This document shows, piece by piece, positions 10,429 through 60,516 of a DNA stretch of 64,000 nucleotides (the stretch's first letter is position 1; each line of letters begins with the position of its first letter). The stretch comes from Patellaria atrata CBS 101060. Taxonomy: Eukaryota. The notes below the pieces were generated by a model that was not told the DNA's origin, did not search any database, and saw nothing but the letters and a program-made list of their open reading frames with translations. Location of the stretch: assembly GCA_010093705.1 (NCBI GenBank), contig MU006114.1:186001-250000 (forward strand), given 5' to 3'. Both the position numbers and the translations under genes were made by a program.

Positions 10429-10635
10429 CGGACTCAAAATTGCCCCGACTGTCTCACATAACGGATGAATTTTGAATTTAAACAATCAATAATAATTTCA
10501 ACAGTGAGTCACAGCATATTCACAGAGAGATCAAGTTGGTAGATATGTGCATTGGTATCATTGGCTTCATTTTGTTTTATAGTATCATTGACCTATACTG
10601 GCAACCCATAGAACCTCGAAATTGCCTCACAACAT

Positions 10636-11313
10636 CTATGCTTGAGTGCTTAGGATATCCGAGTCACCGGCATCGATGATTGCCATGGTACTGCATCTGA
10701 ACAGCTTACCGCAGGCGGTACCGAGCTCAATCTGTATGCATTGGAGAGTTAGCATTCGCTTTCACCCTCCGAAGTCCAAATCGAGACCTCTTCTCAGGGT
10801 GAGCAAAATTCTCAGAATGAGGACCTGCAGTCACGACCGCTTTCATGCGGATTGTACCAGTATAGTGCTTCTTGCAACTTCCTGCACCCCAAGACCAGAC
10901 TTCTAGAAATGGGCGTAACTTACGTTTGAACCAGCGAAGTGGTGGACTGACGTCTTGGCCAACATAGCTATTGGGAGTCAGTTTTGAATTTCTAAAATAT
11001 CCGTGCTGGTATGATCTTACAGTAATATTCGAGCTCAGACTTGCGGAGAGCAGGAGTGTTGCCCGCAATGATAACGAGCTTGGCCTTGCCAGAACGGAGA
11101 GACTTGAGGGTGGACTTATATCCAAGAACGACTGAACAACTTGTAATTAGCTCTGGGCATTCTCGAGAGTCCAAAGATGTTTGAAAATACTAAATCAGAA
11201 GTCAGAATGTTCTCTTCAGCTCGTAAATACATGACATACCCTTTACCAGACTTCATCACCAAAGCCAAACGACTGTTGATGGAGTCGGCGGTCTTGGTCT
11301 TCTTTGGTGCCAT
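10636..11313 (-). CDS. RPL30: 60S ribosomal protein L30/eL30 (exons 11313-11241, 11131-11021, 10967-10924, 10731-10636; 107 aa)
   Basis: [107 protein letters not shown]. Confidence 0.97.
11132..11240 (-). other. Putative [D1,2] stwintron in RPL30 (internal intron 11239-11190, 50 nt; external intron 59 nt)
   Basis: Coding strand reads G|GTATGT...CTGAC...TTTAG|TATTTT...GCTAAT...CAG. Removing the internal intron creates donor GTATTT, and this route restores the KSGK-VVLG frame. Confidence 0.8.
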
Positions 11314-11492
11314 CTTTGCGCGTCAGGATATGAGATAAACTTCCTGAGAAGTGTTTGATGCGCTCCGGTTGATCTGGAAAGTAAAGAAAATAGGGAAGGT
11401 TTGATGTAGTGTGAGATATCTAGAATACGATATTCAGCAAAGCGAAGAAAATGTGTAGAGTCGCTAAGAGGGAAGCTAGTCCTGAAACAAAT

Positions 11493-12109: not shown

Positions 12110-14105
12110 ATGTCTGCTGCTGCAGTCAAGAAATTACCCTCGTCAGGACCGCCGAACAAGACCAATACCACAGGTACTCCGGCATCAACGTCTCGAAGTC
12201 CCTCCAGAACGAGCACTTCCACAACAACCTCGCCCAATGGCGTTAGTAGAGCAAGATCGGTCAGAAGTGGAACAGGCACACCTTTGTCAGCACGCGCAGC
12301 TGTCAAAAAACCAGGGACACCCTCTACACTTAGCCAGAATGTATCGTCCTCAGCAGACGACGGAGATGAGGATGCCCGAGAAGAGGCGGCTGCTCTCATT
12401 CAAGACCTCAAGGAGCAGTTACAGAAAGTGGAGAATACATCGGAGGAGTATATGAAACAGATAGAGGTTCTCCAAGCCCGCTTCGACGATGCCATAAAGG
12501 ACCAAGCAAAGCTTGAGGAAAGGACCCACGAGGAAGAGGAGCGGGTAGAAAGCCTGCTAAACGAAAAGAAAGAGACTGTACGACAGATGAGGGAATTGGA
12601 AAGCATATATGAAGCCGAGCGTGCGGCAACTATGAAAGAGAAAGAGGAAGCATTAGCTCGCGAAGAGGAGTTACATGGAATAATCCAGAGATTAAAGGAG
12701 AGTTTATCACAACGTGAACCTCGCCCTGGCGTGGAAGATGAGCCAAGAATGTCAAGGACTTGTATGTGTCCACGCATGTTCTCGCTATACATCTACTGAC
12801 AATCTACAAGCGAGCTTTCGTAGTAACTCAAGAAACAGCTCAACACATGCTCTCGGCGACGGTGGCCAATTCGCTCCCCCTACATCTCTCCAACGTAGCA
12901 ATTCGAGGAGTGACTCCAAATTACTTCTTCAGAAGGATAAGTTGATCGAGTCTTTACGTCTAGAACTTGCAGAATCCCAAATCAAGCTCGTTGAAATGGA
13001 GAACATGGGTGGTGGTCGTCTTCAAGAGCTGGAGAAGGTTCTTCTTGAAACCAGGATGGCAAATGCACGTTTGATGGAAGATAATGAAAGCTTCCAACTG
13101 TTGCTTAGTGAGAAGACACTCAATGGCGATTTCTCCCGCGGTGAATTCATGCATGGTGTAAAGGAAGAGCGAGTTCCGTCCCGAGCTGGTCCTAGTACCA
13201 GCCTTGCGGACGAGCTACAGTCAGCAACTGAGCAAGATGATGATAATTCCCGTCGTCTAGAATCGGAGCTCAATCAGCTGAAGGACCAAAATAAAGCTCT
13301 TACGCTCTATATTAACAAGATTATTGAGCGCCTCCTAGCTCATAAAGGTTTCGAAACTATTCTATCGGGCGATATACAATCTCCAAATGTCAACGTCAAT
13401 AAGGATCTCCCTCCTCCACCTCCTGCTAAAGACGAAACAGACCCAGCACCTTCCTTACTTCAACGGGCGAAATCGATGGCTGCCCGTCGACCCCGTCCTG
13501 CAAGCCAAATCATGGACAAACCCGTCCTTCCTCCAACTGCAGAAAGTGTTAACACAGATCCAGCTACCGCACCGAGCATACCGCTACAACGTTCACAATC
13601 AACGCGAATTAATCCACAAAATCCTCATCGCCGTTCTACTTCCGAATGGGTTGGGGCCGCGAACGTGGTGAATAACATGTATCGTGGACCGTCCAACCCC
13701 ACTCCGCCGGCTTCTGGAACCGTGAGTCCTGGTCTTGTCTCTCCGCGCAATTCTTTTTTCGGATTTCCGAACAATTCCCAGCGCGTCCCCTCGTCAGGAT
13801 CCGCTCGCCGTCCTAGTGTCGACGATTTTGCTGGAGGTGTCTCGAACACCCCACTCGAAACAACCAGTAACTCAGATAGCGGTACTGCTATTGATGCACC
13901 ATCCCCACCACGAAGCCTTGCAAGTTCGTCTGATAGACAGGGAGGTGCCATCATGGCAGGAAATAAGATTCGCCCTCTAAGGCTAGTTCAGGAGGCTGCG
14001 GAAGATGAAGCTTTGCAGAAAAAGAATAACCGTGGTAGCTGGATGATGGGCTGGTTCGGGAAAGGGGAGAACGCGAGCCCGGGAGGTGAAAGACCTACCT
14101 CCTAA
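12110..14105 (+). CDS. Uncharacterised coiled-coil protein (exons 12110-12761, 12811-14105)
   Basis: Two long ORFs joined in frame by a 49-nt intron (GTATGT...ACTGAC...AAG); heptad-rich segments (LLETRMANARLMEDNESFQLLL, QNKALTLYINKIIERLL). Confidence 0.85.
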
Positions 14106-17800: not shown

Positions 17801-19569
17801 CCGAAGCTGCCCAACGTTGGCTTCCGATATTGAAAGTGCTCTCTGAGCTAAATGGAGTTCACTTAACTTTATACCTTAATCCCAGAGAGAGGCTAGAAGA
17901 GTTGCCTGTGAAGCGCTTCTACCGCTATATTATGGAGTCGAAACCCAAATTCGCAGAGGACGGTTCATTAAAAGGCCTTGCAGCACGGTTTAAAGGTTTA
18001 CCTGCGGAGGCTCTGCTTACTATGGGAATGGATGTACCTCCTTCCTGGTTGGTTGCTCCACAGGTCTCAGTCCATGATCTAGACAACATCAAAATCAGCT
18101 CTCTAAAGACTGATTCGAATATTGATGCAGTTTACGAGCTTGAGCACATTTTGATCGAGGGACACTCGCGTGACAGCGGCGCCCAAGGAAGCCCCCCTCG
18201 AGGAGCTCAGGTTGTTCTCTCCACGGAGAAGAATCCTCATGTTGCTGATACCATCATCATGGCCAATCTTGGATATCTACAGTTCAAGGCAAATCCTGGG
18301 TTCTTCAGGATTGAACTCGAGAAAGGCCGTAGCCGAGATATCTTTAGCCTTGACAGTGCAGGAACCCAAGGGTATAACCCGGTGCCCGGTGATGAGAATA
18401 CAGAGATAGCTCTGATGAGCTTTCAAGGCGTTACGCTATATCCTCGCCTTTCACGTAAACCAGGAATGGAAGATGAAGACGTTCTAGATATACCAGAAAC
18501 TGTAGTCGACAACCTCGCAGCTAAAGGTGCCAAGCTAGCAGATACCCTACTAGCTAAAGTAGGTCTGAAAGAAGTCAATACTGGTAAATATGTCTCCCAA
18601 GCGCAGAGTTTCTTATCGCGCTTCAAATCTCGGACCGGAATCACTGATCTTATACCAGCATCTTCTAGTCAAGCTGATATTAACATCTTTTCGGTTGCAA
18701 GCGGACATCTTTATGAGCGAATGTTGAATATCATGATGCTCAGCGTTATGAAGCACACTAACCACACCGTCAAATTCTGGTTCATTGAGCAATTCCTCTC
18801 ACCCAGCTTTAAAGAATTCCTCCCCACCATGGCCGCCGAGTACAACTTCCAATATGAAATGGTGACCTACAAATGGCCGCACTGGCTCCGGGCGCAAAAG
18901 GAGAAGCAAAGGGAAATCTGGGGCTACAAGATCCTCTTCCTCGACGTGCTCTTCCCCCTCAACCTCGACAAAGTCATCTTCGTCGACGCCGACCAAATCG
19001 TCCGCACCGATATGTACGAGCTCGTGCAACACGACCTCCAAGGCGCGCCCTACGGCTTCACCCCCATGTGCGACTCCCGCACCGAGATGGAAGGCTTCCG
19101 TTTCTGGAAACAAGGATACTGGAAAAACTTCCTGCGCGGCCTTCCCTACCATATCTCCGCCCTCTACGTTGTCGACCTCGTGCGCTTCCGGCAAATAGCG
19201 GCTGGTGACCGACTGCGGCAGCAGTACCACCAGCTCTCCGCCGACCCGGCCAGTCTGAGCAACTTGGACCAGGACCTCCCGAATAACATGCAGATGCAGC
19301 TCCCGATCCATAGTTTGCCGCAGGAGTGGCTGTGGTGCGAGACATGGTGTTCGGACGAGAGCTTGGGCGCCGCCAAGACGATCGATCTGTGCAATAATCC
19401 GATGACGAAGGAGCCCAAGTTGGATAGGGCGAGGAGGCAGGTGCCGGAGTGGACAAGGTACGATGAGGAGATTGCGGCGTTGGCGAGACGGGTTAGGGGC
19501 GTGAAGAGTGAGGTCGTGACGAAAGGGGAACGGGGGCTACATGAGCTGCCGAGGAGGGATGAGTTGTAA
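14875..19569 (+). CDS. KRE5: UDP-glucose:glycoprotein glucosyltransferase, GT24 (exons 14875-15017, 15066-15413, 15466-16294, 16344-16604, 16660-19569)
   Basis: Signal peptide; GYGVELALKRTDYIVIDDR; catalytic domain INIFSVASGHLYER, IFVDAD, DQDLPNN, WCETWC; ends in RDEL ER-retention signal. Confidence 0.97.
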
Positions 19570-42637: not shown

Positions 42638-45300
42638 ATGCATTTCCTCCTCCCTAGTCAATTACTCGCGTTATCATTTTCTATACTCACTACAATCGCT
42701 CTTTCACACAAAAGTCATGACGTTCGCAGTATGCCGCACAAACAATTACATGCTGCAACAAGACATCTGGAATTGAAATCTAGGAACAATGATATTAAAC
42801 TCTGTCACACTGCGGAGCTCGTATATGCAGAATGTAAGAAACAACTGAACTACTTACATCTATGGTGCTAAAGGATATCCATAGCCGAGAATAGCAAATA
42901 TAGGGGTTCAACATTTACTTCGCGAGTAAAAGCCGTCTCGGATACTCCCATACTAGTATTGGAGGAAAACGAACATCTTCTCACCGATATTAGCTGCGTT
43001 CGTTCTACTATTAGACTTGGCGTCACGTCTTGGACACGTCATGTTGAGACGGTAAAGGCTTGTAGCCAACCTGAAGGTTGTTTGGTCGTTACTTCGCACA
43101 TAGGTTGTAACGATGACGGGGAACGTGGACTTTATAGGTAAGTACAACTCTATCTCATTTCTTACTGCTCGTCCGGAGGCTAATCTAGCGTAGGGTTCAA
43201 GGGATCAATTACCGGAAAGCAGATTCTACCGTCATTCTCAATGTTGAACGGGTGTCGTGGAAGAAATCATTCCGATCATTCAATATCGATTTTGGATACA
43301 CCGAGAACGAGCACATTTTACGTCACCATTTCCCTCAGATTGATACCAGACAAGCTCTACCACCAGTTAATCCGGAAAGTATAGACCCTTCAACTTTTCC
43401 ACTGCCCACAGATACACCTGAGGCAGATTCAGCAACCGTTGATCTCAGTTTCCAAGTGCTTGACATCGACTTTGTTCCATCTATACTTGGAGACATCCCG
43501 TTCGAAATAGGATGCAAAAATTGTACAACCTCGGGGTCTGTGACACTGTCCAGTGGCGAGTTCGATATAACCCCAGAGTTCTCTTTCGGCAACCTAGATC
43601 AAGGGATTGACTTTATCCAAGGCGGGTTTGTCGAGCTTACAGTAGACTCCTTCGCCGCCCGCATCGAGCTCGAAGCTTCACCGGTCGCCTCTGTTGCTTT
43701 TGCCCAAGAACTGATTGTTCTTCCCATCGTCGGCTTCGTCATCCCTGGTATTGGTCAAGCTGGGATTACATTTGCGCCACAAATTTCAGGCTCATTTGAG
43801 CTGGATGGCTGCATAGACATCACTTATGGATTCGAACTTGAAGTACCAGACGGGTCGAGTGTCAGACTTGACCTAGCCGATTTATCAAACAGTGGCACCA
43901 CTGGTTTTGAAAACACCAGGCTTGCCTCTCTTCCGTTTGATGCTGATTTTGGCATCGATTCTCTAACCCTTACTACCGCTTTCCAACCTCGAATTCCGGT
44001 CGGATTCAGTTTCTTAGATGACGCACTTGTTGCTGAGGTTGCTGTTGTGGTCGATCTTCCTTCATTCGCTGTCACTCTCACTCCTCTCACTGGTGTTGAT
44101 GATCAATGTCAGCCTCTGGCCGGTGCTGAGGAGGCGACGGAAAATTTGGGTACTGGAACTAACCTCAAGATTGAACCAGCACTTGCAATCAACCTAGCTG
44201 TGGAAGCAGAGCTTGCTGCTGTAATCCCTGGTCTTCCCGATGCCGCATTCGCTACTGCGGTCACTCTACTCAGTACAACCTTCGCTTTACCGACGGCTTG
44301 TGTACCTATCGATATCGTTGCTCCGAGTTGCACACCTCTACCAGGTGGAAATCTCACTGAAATTGTCCCAACCGGAACTGGTTTCATCCCATCAGGTGTT
44401 GCACCGCCTTCTGGGATCTTAGCACCCACTGGGTATATCCCGCCACCGAGACCAACGGAAATCTCCTGGAATGCCACGGTGATTGTTGATGTAGAGAACA
44501 ACCGTGTCAAGACGGCCTGGATTATTGAAACTGGTGCTCTTCCTCCAGCAGCTACCGAAGTACCCGCTCCAAGTGTCACTGAGGTCGTTACTATGGTGAT
44601 TTCTGTAGGTGTCGACGACTCCGGTGTGCCAATCATGTCTACAATCACTATGGATGCTTCCGAACCCGAGGCAACCGAATCCACCGATTCAACTGGTTCA
44701 GCCGACACAAATGAATCAAGTAACTCCAGTGGTTCAAATGATTCAACCGACTCATTCCATTCTACCGACTCAACCGACTCAATAGAAGGAATTCCAGGTG
44801 ATAGTTCATCGCCCTTAGAATCCATCCAGTATAATCCTTATATGCCATACACCGGCTCAGTGAGACCTACCCTGACCATCCAAACACCAATACCCTACGT
44901 ATGGACACCTCCAGCACAAGTACAACCAAGCGCAGCGGACGACTTCTCGATATTACCCTACGTCCCATCATTAGCCACTGATATTCCAAGCCCACCTGTC
45001 GAGTTCCCCGTGGAAGGTGATCCGACACCTGGCACCGAATATCCCATAGAGGTCTCAATTCCAACTAATCCAATTACGGTAACCGAAGTAACCAATATCA
45101 TGCCGACCGGGGCGCCGACTTTCGTCTATAATACTGGCAACGGGACCTTCCTCAATCCTACGGGTTCAGTCATCACTCGCACTGTTCCGGTCGTCACCTC
45201 AATTGTGCCTTTCGAGGGCTCGGCGTCTTCGACCCAGTCGTTTGAAGGGCTGGCGCTGTCGTTCTTGGGATTCGTTGCGGGCATCATGGCGTTCTTGTAG
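42638..45300 (+). CDS. Secreted, probably GPI-anchored Ser/Thr/Pro-rich cell-surface protein (exons 42638-42833, 42885-43137, 43194-45300)
   Basis: Signal peptide; beta-rich Cys-containing domain (IGCKNCTTSG); S/T/P stalk; small-residue site followed by hydrophobic C-terminus LALSFLGFVAGIMAFL. Confidence 0.85.
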
Positions 45301-58261: not shown

Positions 58262-60516
58262 TCAAAAAGCAAACCGCTCTTCCCCCTTCTTAACCAACCG
58301 CAGCGGAACCTTGCCTGCCGACATCTTAATAGTAATCGCAGTCCTCATGCCGTGTGCAAACAGCCAATCCGCACGATCCTTCGCCTTCTCCCAAACTTGT
58401 CTTCTCGCCTCTTCTGACATCCTCTCCACCTCCTCATCCGTCGCCCATTCCCCAACATCCAGCTCTACACTCCATGTCCGAAAGATGTACGCCAACACCG
58501 CACAAAGTTCCACCTGTGCAAACCTCCTCCCCAAACACGACCTGAATCCCTCACTGAAAGGAATAAAAGCCCCCCTCGGAGGTGTGTATAGCGATGATGG
58601 TGTATGACTACTAGCAGGACCACCAATACCCTCGGTATCCGCATCTTCTGGTCCATTCGAGTGGTCGTGGGACGCTCCATCAACTGCGCCTGGCAGCCAC
58701 CTCTCCGGCCTGAATTCATTGAGGTCGTTTTCATGTAGTTTCCCATCGGGGTCGCGCCACGCGGGCCAGTATCTGGGACTTCGCTGGACAGCTACGGAGT
58801 TCAGAGTTACGTAGGTACTGGCTGGTACAACGACCCTCTTGCCGCTAATGGTAAGCGGTTGTAGCTGCGATGAAGTCTTCTTCGGTATTCCGATGACAGG
58901 AGGGATCAGTCGGAGAATTTCGTTCATCACTGCGCCGGGCATGCCTCCAAAGAGCTTGGTGAAGTCTTTGTCGTAGTCCCAATCGTTGGCTGGCCGATCA
59001 CCGAGTATATCCTCGAGCTCCTTTTGGAGTCGCTTTTGACTGTCTGGGCACATAGCGAGGTAGATGAGTGAGTAGTGGAGCGTGTTCGCTGTTGTTTCAT
59101 GTCCTGCGAGGAGGAAGACAAAGGCGTTGGAGAAGATTTCACCATCTGTTAGAAGTTGTTTGGATTTTTTTTCTTCCCCATTATCTGGACCAACGGTAAC
59201 TCCGGCGCCCTTGACGATGGCACCTGCAAGATCATTGTCAACAATTGTTACTAGAGCATGATTTCTAGGAAAGCAAGTATGTATTCCGGGGAGGATAGGA
59301 AGCAGGTGAAAATGAGAATGAAGAAAAATGTATGACTTGAGGAAGGTGATATACAGTTTAATCTGATACTGGGATAATGCAGCATCGCAAGACAAGGGGT
59401 ATCGATACTGGACTTAATATGTGATTAATCATAGAGCACCTACCGAAAAGATCTAAACCTTCTGTCTGAATACCAAGCCGAATGTCTTGTTTACTCTTTT
59501 CGAGCATTTCTTTCATGTACTTGAACCACTCCTTGTGTGCGCGGTACGCAACTTTGTGAGCCTTGAATGGCGAAATTGCTGACGGAGTATCAAATCAGCT
59601 GTTGAACATGCACATAGGTGCATATCATAATTACCTAGAAACCATTCAGGGAAAATCGCTACCCAAATCAATCGGTCTAATAGCTGACTGAGAGCATCAA
59701 TGAACGAAAAACTGTGTCCAGCGGGAAGCTCAGTATCCGCAAGGTTGATACGACCTTCCGTAGCATTTTTCTGTGCTTCTTCGTGCGGCCAAAGTAGACG
59801 CATACCGAAGCCAGCGCGACTGATGACGTATAAAGTCAACCTCATGCTGTCCGCACCTGGGTCACGGATAGCGAAATCCTCCAAATGCCACTTATCAAGC
59901 ATGGATTTAGCCTGCTGCACGCTCTCCTTAAACACGAGAAAGTTATTGCTCTCTGTGAAGGAAGGAGAAGTAATTTTTCGATGATGACGCCATACTGATC
60001 CCTCGGTGGTTACTACACTACTCCCGTATATATCAATGTTTCGATACATTTCAATCGGCTTTGGAAAGTCACTACGCCGTGAAGTGATTTGCGCGATAGC
60101 CTCCGCATCAGCTACAAAAAGCGTGTTGACGCGTGGTGTTACATGCATGAGGGCGTCCATCTCTAGCTTTTCGAAGGGAGAATAGCGCCCAGGCCAGCTC
60201 CAGTTCGGTTCTAGATAACTATTGAAGGGAAAAGTGAGATTAGTGAGTGTATCAACGTGTTGCTAGAATATCTCGCAAGGCGTTGGGCTACATACTACAA
60301 CCACGGAGACGTCCATGACTCGGGCAGTTTCTTTAGCAGAGGTAAGAGGAATCGCTGCGATGAGAACCAGAAAAGAGTGTAAACGTAAATAGGAACGATC
60401 ACATAAGGAATACCGGACTTTTTCGCATCCGCGAGATTTCGAGAGAACTGTCGATAACTGATGAAGAAATAGTAAGCGATGGAAGCCAAGGCCACCATCT
60501 GCCACAAAGAGATCAT
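58262..60516 (-). CDS. Cytochrome P450 monooxygenase (exons 60516-60296, 60218-59635, 59578-59444, 59223-58262)
   Basis: N-terminal membrane anchor; WRHHRK; AGHETTA (I-helix); EILR; FRPERW; heme motif FSEGFRSCLG. Confidence 0.95.

Follow-up and report, generated by a model that had tools for sequence, protein, structure and literature searches.

How is a ribosomal protein gene spliced correctly when its first intervening sequence does not begin with GT? This question is raised by RPL30 in the Dothideomycete Patellaria atrata CBS 101060 (Patellariales). The gene was examined within a stretch of 64,000 nucleotides of contig MU006114.1, referred to here as the window. The most satisfactory answer is that the first intervening sequence is probably a spliceosomal twin intron (stwintron) of the [D1,2] type, an uncommon arrangement that is known from earlier work. 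The original prediction, made from the letters of the window, had proposed this arrangement and had added that it acts as a switch between productive splicing and NMD, tied to the autoregulation of L30. The structural proposal emerged from the present analysis as the best explanation, and the regulatory one found no support.

The RPL30 gene and its protein

A four-exon gene was delineated on the minus strand between positions 11313 and 10636, with its ATG at 11313 and a TAG stop codon at 10638-10636. Matches to PF01248 (L7Ae/L30e family) were found in exon 2 (35 bits) and exon 4 (23.1 bits), both above the cutoff of 22.1. Joining of the segments 11313-11241, 11131-11021, 10967-10924, and 10731-10636 produced a protein of 107 amino acids that is identical at 107/107 residues to P0001 (KAF2834843.1), the L30e-like protein deposited for Patellaria atrata CBS 101060, and 69-89% identical to the proteins of relatives over the best aligned segments. 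The four exons are intact and no further lesion was seen in them. Only one L30 named for Patellaria atrata was present among the best 120 of 526 matches. Judging from the PF01248 match and the full-length identity to an annotated L30, this gene is identified as that of ribosomal protein eL30. Its features are collected in Table 1.

Table 1. Positions in the window of the RPL30 gene parts and of the predicted splicing signals
Feature	Position	Strand	Remarks
RPL30 exon 1, coding part	11241..11313	-	24 residues plus one base; ends AAA G, phase 1
RPL30 intervening sequence 1	11240..11132	-	109 nt, starts GG
Extra G, first base of predicted external donor	11240	-	in contigs of both DNA runs; absent from 11 canonical orthologous introns
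Predicted internal intron, 50 nt	11190..11239	-	GTATGT...TTTAG; fits GTRWGY-N27-DYTRAY-N8-HAG
Internal-intron donor GTATGT	11239-11234	-	motif match
Internal-intron branch element TCTGAC	11206-11201, A at 11202	-	27 nt past donor, 8 nt before TAG
Internal-intron acceptor TAG	11192-11190	-	motif match
Rest of predicted external intron, 58 nt (59 nt with G 11240)	11132..11189	-	TATTTT...GCTAAT...CAG
External-intron branch element GCTAAT	11151-11146, A at 11147	-	33 nt past donor hexamer, 11 nt before CAG
External-intron acceptor CAG	11134-11132	-	motif match
Competing acceptor AAG	11140..11142	-	3 nt past GCTAAT
Cryptic donor GTAAAG	11241..11246	-	in frame with CAG 11132
RPL30 exon 2	11021..11131	-	PF01248, E 1.2e-08
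RPL30 intron 2	10968..11020	-	53 nt, GTAAGA...TAG
RPL30 exon 3	10924..10967	-	joined CDS
RPL30 intron 3	10732..10923	-	192 nt, GTAAGT...CAG
RPL30 exon 4, coding part	10636..10731	-	PF01248, E 6.1e-05; stop TAG 10638-10636

The third intron of the gene, with 192 nt, is long in comparison with the roughly 56 nt typical of the window. At 31 distinct related loci, it ranges from 60 to 216 nt and mostly exceeds 115 nt. Its position is conserved in the related loci, and the snoRNA-like Rfam matches found nearby were all sub-threshold.

A nested parse of the first intervening sequence

The peptide K-V-V-L-G-Y-K-S requires that AAA G, which ends at 11241, be joined to TC GTT, which begins at 11131, and the 109-nt intervening sequence must therefore start with GG. 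The minus strand at the junction reads ...TCT GGT AAA G/G/GTATGT..., and the GGG at 11241-11239 appears as CCC on the plus strand. The sequence confirmed this unusual start as originally described, and the division of the region into a single G, an intron of 50 nt, and a remainder that gives a 59-nt intron with a GTATTT donor and its own branch site was exact in its lengths. Removal of the inner intron would bring the G next to TATTT and regenerate the external donor as GTATTT, which has T, not G, at position +5, a departure that the original prediction had not pointed out.

These features were compared with the criteria used to search for [D1,2] stwintrons. The screen described in the excerpt of PMC5587772 has the form GGTRWGY N25-120 DYTRAY N4-24 HAG TRWGY N25-120 DYTRAY N4-24 HAG. 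The heptanucleotide GGTATGT at 11240-11234 matches the GGTRWGY with which such a stwintron begins. The internal intron has the required length of at least 42 nt and a DYTRAY element located 25-120 nt past the donor and 4-24 nt before an HAG acceptor, and in the external intron the branch element GCTAAT and a separate acceptor fall within the allowed distances. The one departure concerns the U2RWGY sequence expected after the inner acceptor, where TATTT agrees with T, R, W, and Y but has T at +5. With T in place of G at +5, GTATTT escapes the published search motifs. The U2RWGY criterion is a search heuristic of its authors, and failing it does not prove that a donor is non-functional.

The whole region, with 109 nt, is about double the length of a window-typical intron. 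In the window, a screen based on the joining of open reading frames proposed 24 introns whose donors fit the consensus; their median length was 56.5 nt, and 21 of the 24 measured 80 nt or less. Measured against this median, both halves of the region (50 and 59 nt) are normal-sized. The screen serves for intron length; the base frequencies that it gives at +5 are too noisy to quote, because the rule of taking the shortest candidate selected many spurious introns of 42-43 nt.

The probability of finding such a parse by chance was estimated by keeping the 7-nt head and the 20-nt tail of the region fixed and shuffling the 82-nt interior 5000 times. A full nested parse was present in 1.2-1.7% of the shuffles when only a T was required after the inner acceptor and in 0.2-0.5% of them when TRW or TRWNY was required. 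The window was also scanned on both strands with a strict pattern, in which TRWGY follows the inner acceptor, and with a relaxed one, in which this element is TRWNY. The RPL30 region conforms to the relaxed pattern only. The strict [D1,2] pattern had no match on either strand of the 64-kb window, and the relaxed pattern had a single match, at 11240, versus about 0.3 expected. These results indicated that the nested parse exceeds chance.

Other candidate introns of the window showed related features. Two single-solution candidates, 59579-59634 (minus strand) and 18372-18427 (plus strand), have the donors GTAATT and GTATAA, both without G5, which suggests that such donors are used in this genome. 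In a candidate intron at 43138-43193 (plus strand), GTAAGT...GGCTAATCTAGCGTAG, the continuity of the open reading frame needs the second AG. The AG located right after the CTAAT element is skipped in this predicted gene model, which would be an in-genome precedent for the skipping of an AG close to the branch element.

Support for the additional G

The nested parse depends on a single nucleotide, and independent assemblies of the raw data were consulted. Logan contigs of two DNA runs from one sample (21 kb and 10 kb) keep the extra G. These were the only public runs found to contain the stretch, and no RNA run was among them. Across positions 10560-11420, these contigs and the window do not differ by a single mismatched letter or gap, and the word depth was 319 and 454. 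The two runs may be the source reads of the assembly. Since both come from one sample that is possibly the assembly's own, the agreement is one between assemblers and not between samples.

The same site in relatives

Metagenome contigs were scanned with P0001 and 80 loci were identified. The coding sequence is contiguous at the site of the first intron in 54 of them, which are cDNA-like or intronless, and 10 had no match to the peptide anchors. The remaining 16 loci have an intervening sequence at the site, and these represent 12 different sequences, of which 11 are canonical phase-1 introns of 51-80 nt, G/GT...CAG/, at a site identical to that of RPL30 in the window; none of the 12 starts with GGGT. 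The survey of orthologues proposed with the original prediction thus found plain GT...CAG introns in 11/12 distinct loci and the extra G in none. In the twelfth locus, L028, the first intron is located 2 nt upstream and reads AA/GTACGT...TAG/G GTC.

The protein sequences gave a concordant picture. Among 225 L30-like proteins, 139 read K-[VY]x-LG right after KSGK, and a three-amino-acid insertion is present in none. Another 64 of the 225 are open reading frames that read through into intron 1; 54 of them are of the type "G.." and 10 of the type "YV/YA", and the type G-[YCW]-V, expected of a GGGT start, was represented by 0/64. When the exon-1 read-through open reading frame of the window was used as the query, nothing similar was found past exon 1 (best match, 40 bits).

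The presence of plain introns at the identical site in relatives indicates that the intron position is old and that it is ordinarily occupied by one plain intron. Because the nested arrangement was found in no relative sampled, conservation offers no argument in its favor, and the nested form appears to be private to this lineage as far as the sampled relatives reach. Donors without G5 were present in 2/11 of the intron-1 sequences of relatives (GTAAAT in L026 and GTACCA in L047) and in 0/31 distinct intron-3 sequences from related metagenome loci. Donors of this kind therefore exist in L30 introns but are uncommon.

The intron form located 2 nt upstream is also seen in 10 read-through open reading frames, P0130, P0139, P0140, P0165, P0176-P0178, P0183, P0215, and P0223. 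The discordant position that it creates in some L30 genes of Pezizomycotina, shifted by 2 nt, falls in the same codon pair as the nested form of the window. A different case is P0143, an annotated protein from a metagenome-assembled genome (MAG) of a lichen fungus, in which V-T-L is missing at the junction. This resembles a mis-called splice site of the same intron.

Predicted splice products and competing explanations

The products of the possible splicing routes were translated. Removal of the two introns in succession leads to ...KSGKVVLGYKS... and is the sole GT-AG route to the conserved protein. A one-step reaction from 11239 to 11132 produces a +1 frameshift and K-G-R-S-W-I-stop, and the RNA from which the inner intron alone is removed reaches a stop after 15 further codons. 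Both nonsense outcomes had been part of the original prediction and were reproduced. Unspliced RNA likewise reaches a stop. The translations therefore agree with what is expected of a [D1,2] stwintron, in which exact removal restores the conserved open reading frame and the joining of the distal sites in a single reaction shifts it by +1. Two in-frame products that the original prediction had not mentioned were also found. One-step splicing from GTATGT (11239) to AAG (11140) adds three amino acids (G-C-S), and splicing from GTAAAG (11246) to CAG (11132) deletes two (G-K).

Each of these in-frame products corresponds to a different reading of the locus. The AAG acceptor would define a single ordinary intron of 100 nt with a strong donor and would place a three-residue insertion (K-G-C-S-V-V-L-G) in the turn that precedes strand 1 of the protein. 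AAG is the first AG past the GCTAAT branch element, and AAG acceptors are seen among the candidate introns of the window, e.g., at 12762-12810. However, its 3-nt distance from the branch element, the only one nearby, is under the empirical minimum of 4 nt between branch element and acceptor reported in the excerpt of PMC5587772, and a length of 100 nt is atypical of this window. The insertion is present in 0/139 contiguous L30 sequences at that position and is missing from the deposited protein, and the CAG at the end of all 11 canonical orthologous introns immediately precedes the T/G-C of the Val codon. This route would, in addition, turn the complete inner-intron parse into a coincidence of 0.2-1.7%, and we consider it very improbable, if slightly less so than the other alternatives weighed here. 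The GTAAAG donor could be spliced to CAG either directly or after the inner intron is removed, and the product would be an L30 without G-K. By our own count against the U1 consensus, GTAAAG forms five contiguous pairs with U1, similar to GTATTT. Nonetheless, it lacks both G5 and T6, K-S-G-K is retained in 139/139 contiguous sequences, and relatives with GGT AAA codons have the same cryptic GTAAAG yet use the downstream donor. Of all the readings considered, use of this donor seems the least probable.

The extra G could also reflect a mistake in sequencing or assembly, or a lesion private to the strain, in which case the true intron would be a canonical GTATGT...CAG of 108 nt. A difference of one base in a homopolymer would be the simplest source of GG at a conserved G/GT site, and the two supporting DNA runs represent one sample that is perhaps the source of the assembly. 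Against this stand the agreement of both runs, put together by a different assembler, at the depths given above and without differing letters; the length of a 108-nt intron, twice the usual size; and the nested parse, which an error would leave as a rare coincidence (about 1% or less). An error or private lesion is thus rated as exceedingly unlikely, only ahead of the use of GTAAAG. Alternatively, the nucleotide may be real and the copy crippled by the +1 insertion, so that most transcripts would be nonsense and functional L30 would be supplied by a gene elsewhere in the genome or by some rare rescue event. The outer donor GTATTT is weak, and a second L30 copy could exist outside the 64-kb window. 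Pezizomycotina usually have a single L30 gene, however, and the only L30 named for the species among the best matches, the absence of further lesions from the exons, and the preservation of all four of them together with the identity to relatives argue against a decaying copy, which we regard as very unlikely.

A probable stwintron in RPL30

The [D1,2] stwintron remains the preferred explanation. According to it, a U2-type intron of 50 nt (11239..11190) would split an older 59-nt intron within its donor, between nucleotides 1 and 2. The older intron would occupy the position conserved in Pezizomycotina. By intron definition, the strong GTATGT would first be paired with TCTGAC...TAG, the branch element and acceptor closest to it. 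Ligation of the G at 11240 to the TATTT that begins at 11189 would then create the donor AAG/GTATTT, which would in turn be spliced to GCTAAT...CAG (11132). The fusion of AAA G to TC GTT would result in normal L30. If the outermost sites reacted in one step, the G would be kept in the mRNA, with a +1 frameshift and a stop after six codons; this +1 G RNA is probably a minor product of mis-splicing that is cleared by NMD. By our own count against the U1 consensus, GTATTT and the cryptic GTAAAG would be about equally complementary to U1 after the first step, and competition from GTAAAG may occur. The analysis shows the sequence, the rarity of its parse by chance, the translated products, and the plain intron of relatives; that the two steps take place, in what order and how efficiently, and that an intron was inserted into a donor, is inferred. 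The plain intron in relatives and the nested form here fit the model of origin in the excerpt of PMC5639578, in which an intron appears inside the donor of a pre-existing intron.

Other origins and routes were considered and set aside. Tandem duplication of an intron was rejected on the grounds that the halves share only GTATTT and that 605 of 1000 shuffles scored at or above the observed value. A mobile or introner-like origin gained no support, as no similar copies were found in the 64-kb window or the 80 loci. The alternative [A2,3] path does not apply, the first exonic base downstream being T. An explanation by programmed +1 frameshifting of the ribosome along the one-step mRNA was set aside as far less parsimonious.

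The deposited protein contains a junction that gene callers following GT-AG rules should miss, which hints at a transcript-based gene model. The genome paper (PMC7082219) names only the JGI pipeline for annotation. In the excerpt of PMC5587772, automatic annotation of [D1,2] stwintrons is described as always wrong, and gene callers as not trained for them.

The nonsense outcome and regulation

The original prediction had gone further and proposed that ordered splicing acts as a productive-versus-NMD switch. In a fuller version of this idea, the weak GTATTT, the one-step route, and the in-frame AAG route would make RPL30 output follow the kinetics of the first splice; the cell, possibly by way of L30 bound close to the split donor, would adjust the balance between productive and NMD-sensitive RNA, and the stwintron would have been recruited as an autoregulatory device. 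We consider this scenario very improbable. The nonsense outcome is not special to RPL30, since any [D1,2] stwintron is built in such a way that one-step splicing shifts the frame by +1. The excerpt of PMC9024468 states that one-step splicing of any [D1,2] stwintron at its distal sites leaves G1 exonic with a +1 frameshift, that NMD usually removes the +1 G RNA, and that this RNA reflects infrequent mis-splicing in Hypoxylon.

Structural analyses of the region gave no support for the switch either. Its predicted fold has a minimum free energy of -22.1 kcal/mol and a z-score of +1.90, and 198 of 200 shuffled sequences folded at least as well. Neither a terminal inverted repeat nor a stable stem was found in the region, and no Rfam family reached its threshold (best E value 3.1; 14-17.5 bits versus gathering scores of 39-50). 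A structured RNA, snoRNA, or regulatory element was rejected on the basis of these sub-threshold matches and of a fold weaker than that of the shuffles. A regulated switch or a link to the autoregulation of L30 is therefore unsupported.

Implications and comparison with known systems

If the prediction is confirmed, a Dothideomycete would have a stwintron in a ribosomal protein gene that is both essential and expressed at very high levels, and the absence of G from +5 of a regenerated donor would prove compatible with function in a [D1,2] stwintron. As published motif screens all demand G5, stwintrons would then be undercounted. The locus offers a clean natural substrate in which to study how faithfully and in what order nested introns are removed, and what load this places on NMD. 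It is also a warning for annotation, the RPL30 junction being beyond the reach of GT-AG rules.

The best studied relatives of this arrangement are the [D1,2] stwintrons of Pezizomycotina described by Flipphi, Fekete, Karaffa and coworkers, which, in the excerpts of PMC5587772, PMC5639578, PMC9024468, and PMC12403724, start with 5'-GGT and have a full U2 intron between G1 and U2. RPL30 shares this structure. It is likewise made up of two introns of ordinary size that both carry a DYTRAY element and an HAG acceptor, and it lies at a position that a canonical intron occupies in other taxa. It differs in its external donor, GTATTT, which, with T at +5, is excluded by every published search model; those in the excerpt of PMC9024468 explicitly demand G5. 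The RPL30 case also differs in being a prediction from sequence.

Another difference is the host, a core ribosomal protein gene, of which there is no example among the [D1,2] stwintrons listed in the texts and supplements searched. The terms "ribosomal protein", "L30", "rpl30", and "60S" are absent from the main texts of PMC5639578 and PMC9024468, as is "ribosomal" from that of PMC12403724. The text supplements of PMC9024468, PMC12403724, and PMC8469720 contain no ribosomal protein host, the sole match being "non-ribosomal peptide synthetase". In the excerpt of PMC6616335, "ribosomal protein" is limited to the title of a reference, and PMC7049729 deals with plant mitochondria. No report of a stwintron in RPL30 was found in the stwintron literature searched, the 2013 and 2015 papers in Fungal Genetics and Biology being outside its scope.

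Two special groups of stwintrons can also be compared. Unlike the "sister" stwintrons of Hypoxylaceae and Xylariaceae, the RPL30 region has neither a terminal inverted repeat nor a stable fold, and a search for sister copies in the 64-kb window and the 80 loci gave only chance matches of 9-16 nt. The alternatively spliced [D1,2]/[A2,3] stwintrons, which in the excerpt of PMC5587772 are associated with a 1-nt intron shift, resemble RPL30 in their nested geometry and in the discordant intron positions among relatives. They differ from it in the base that follows the distal acceptor, which in RPL30 is T (CAG/T) and not G.

Beyond stwintrons, two systems bear a partial likeness to RPL30 of Patellaria atrata, and the first belongs to the same gene family. 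In Saccharomyces cerevisiae, L30 controls the splicing of its own transcript by attaching to a kink-turn that lies at the 5' splice site of the RPL30 pre-mRNA. Both genes have a 5'-proximal intron whose splicing decides the output, but the intron position differs, and neither the predicted fold nor the Rfam search pointed to a kink-turn or stable structure in the Patellaria region. The second is recursive splicing, with the zero-length-exon ratchet points of Drosophila and vertebrates, where the whole of the regenerated GT is contributed by the sequence on the downstream side of an AG/GT site. As in recursive splicing, the first step in RPL30 would regenerate a donor and removal would be stepwise. 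Here, in contrast, the G and the T of the donor flank the inner intron, and it is the splice signal itself that is interrupted. The probable RPL30 stwintron opens no new kind of mechanism. Stwintrons are a well described kind of intron, to which this case probably adds a regenerated donor with T at +5.
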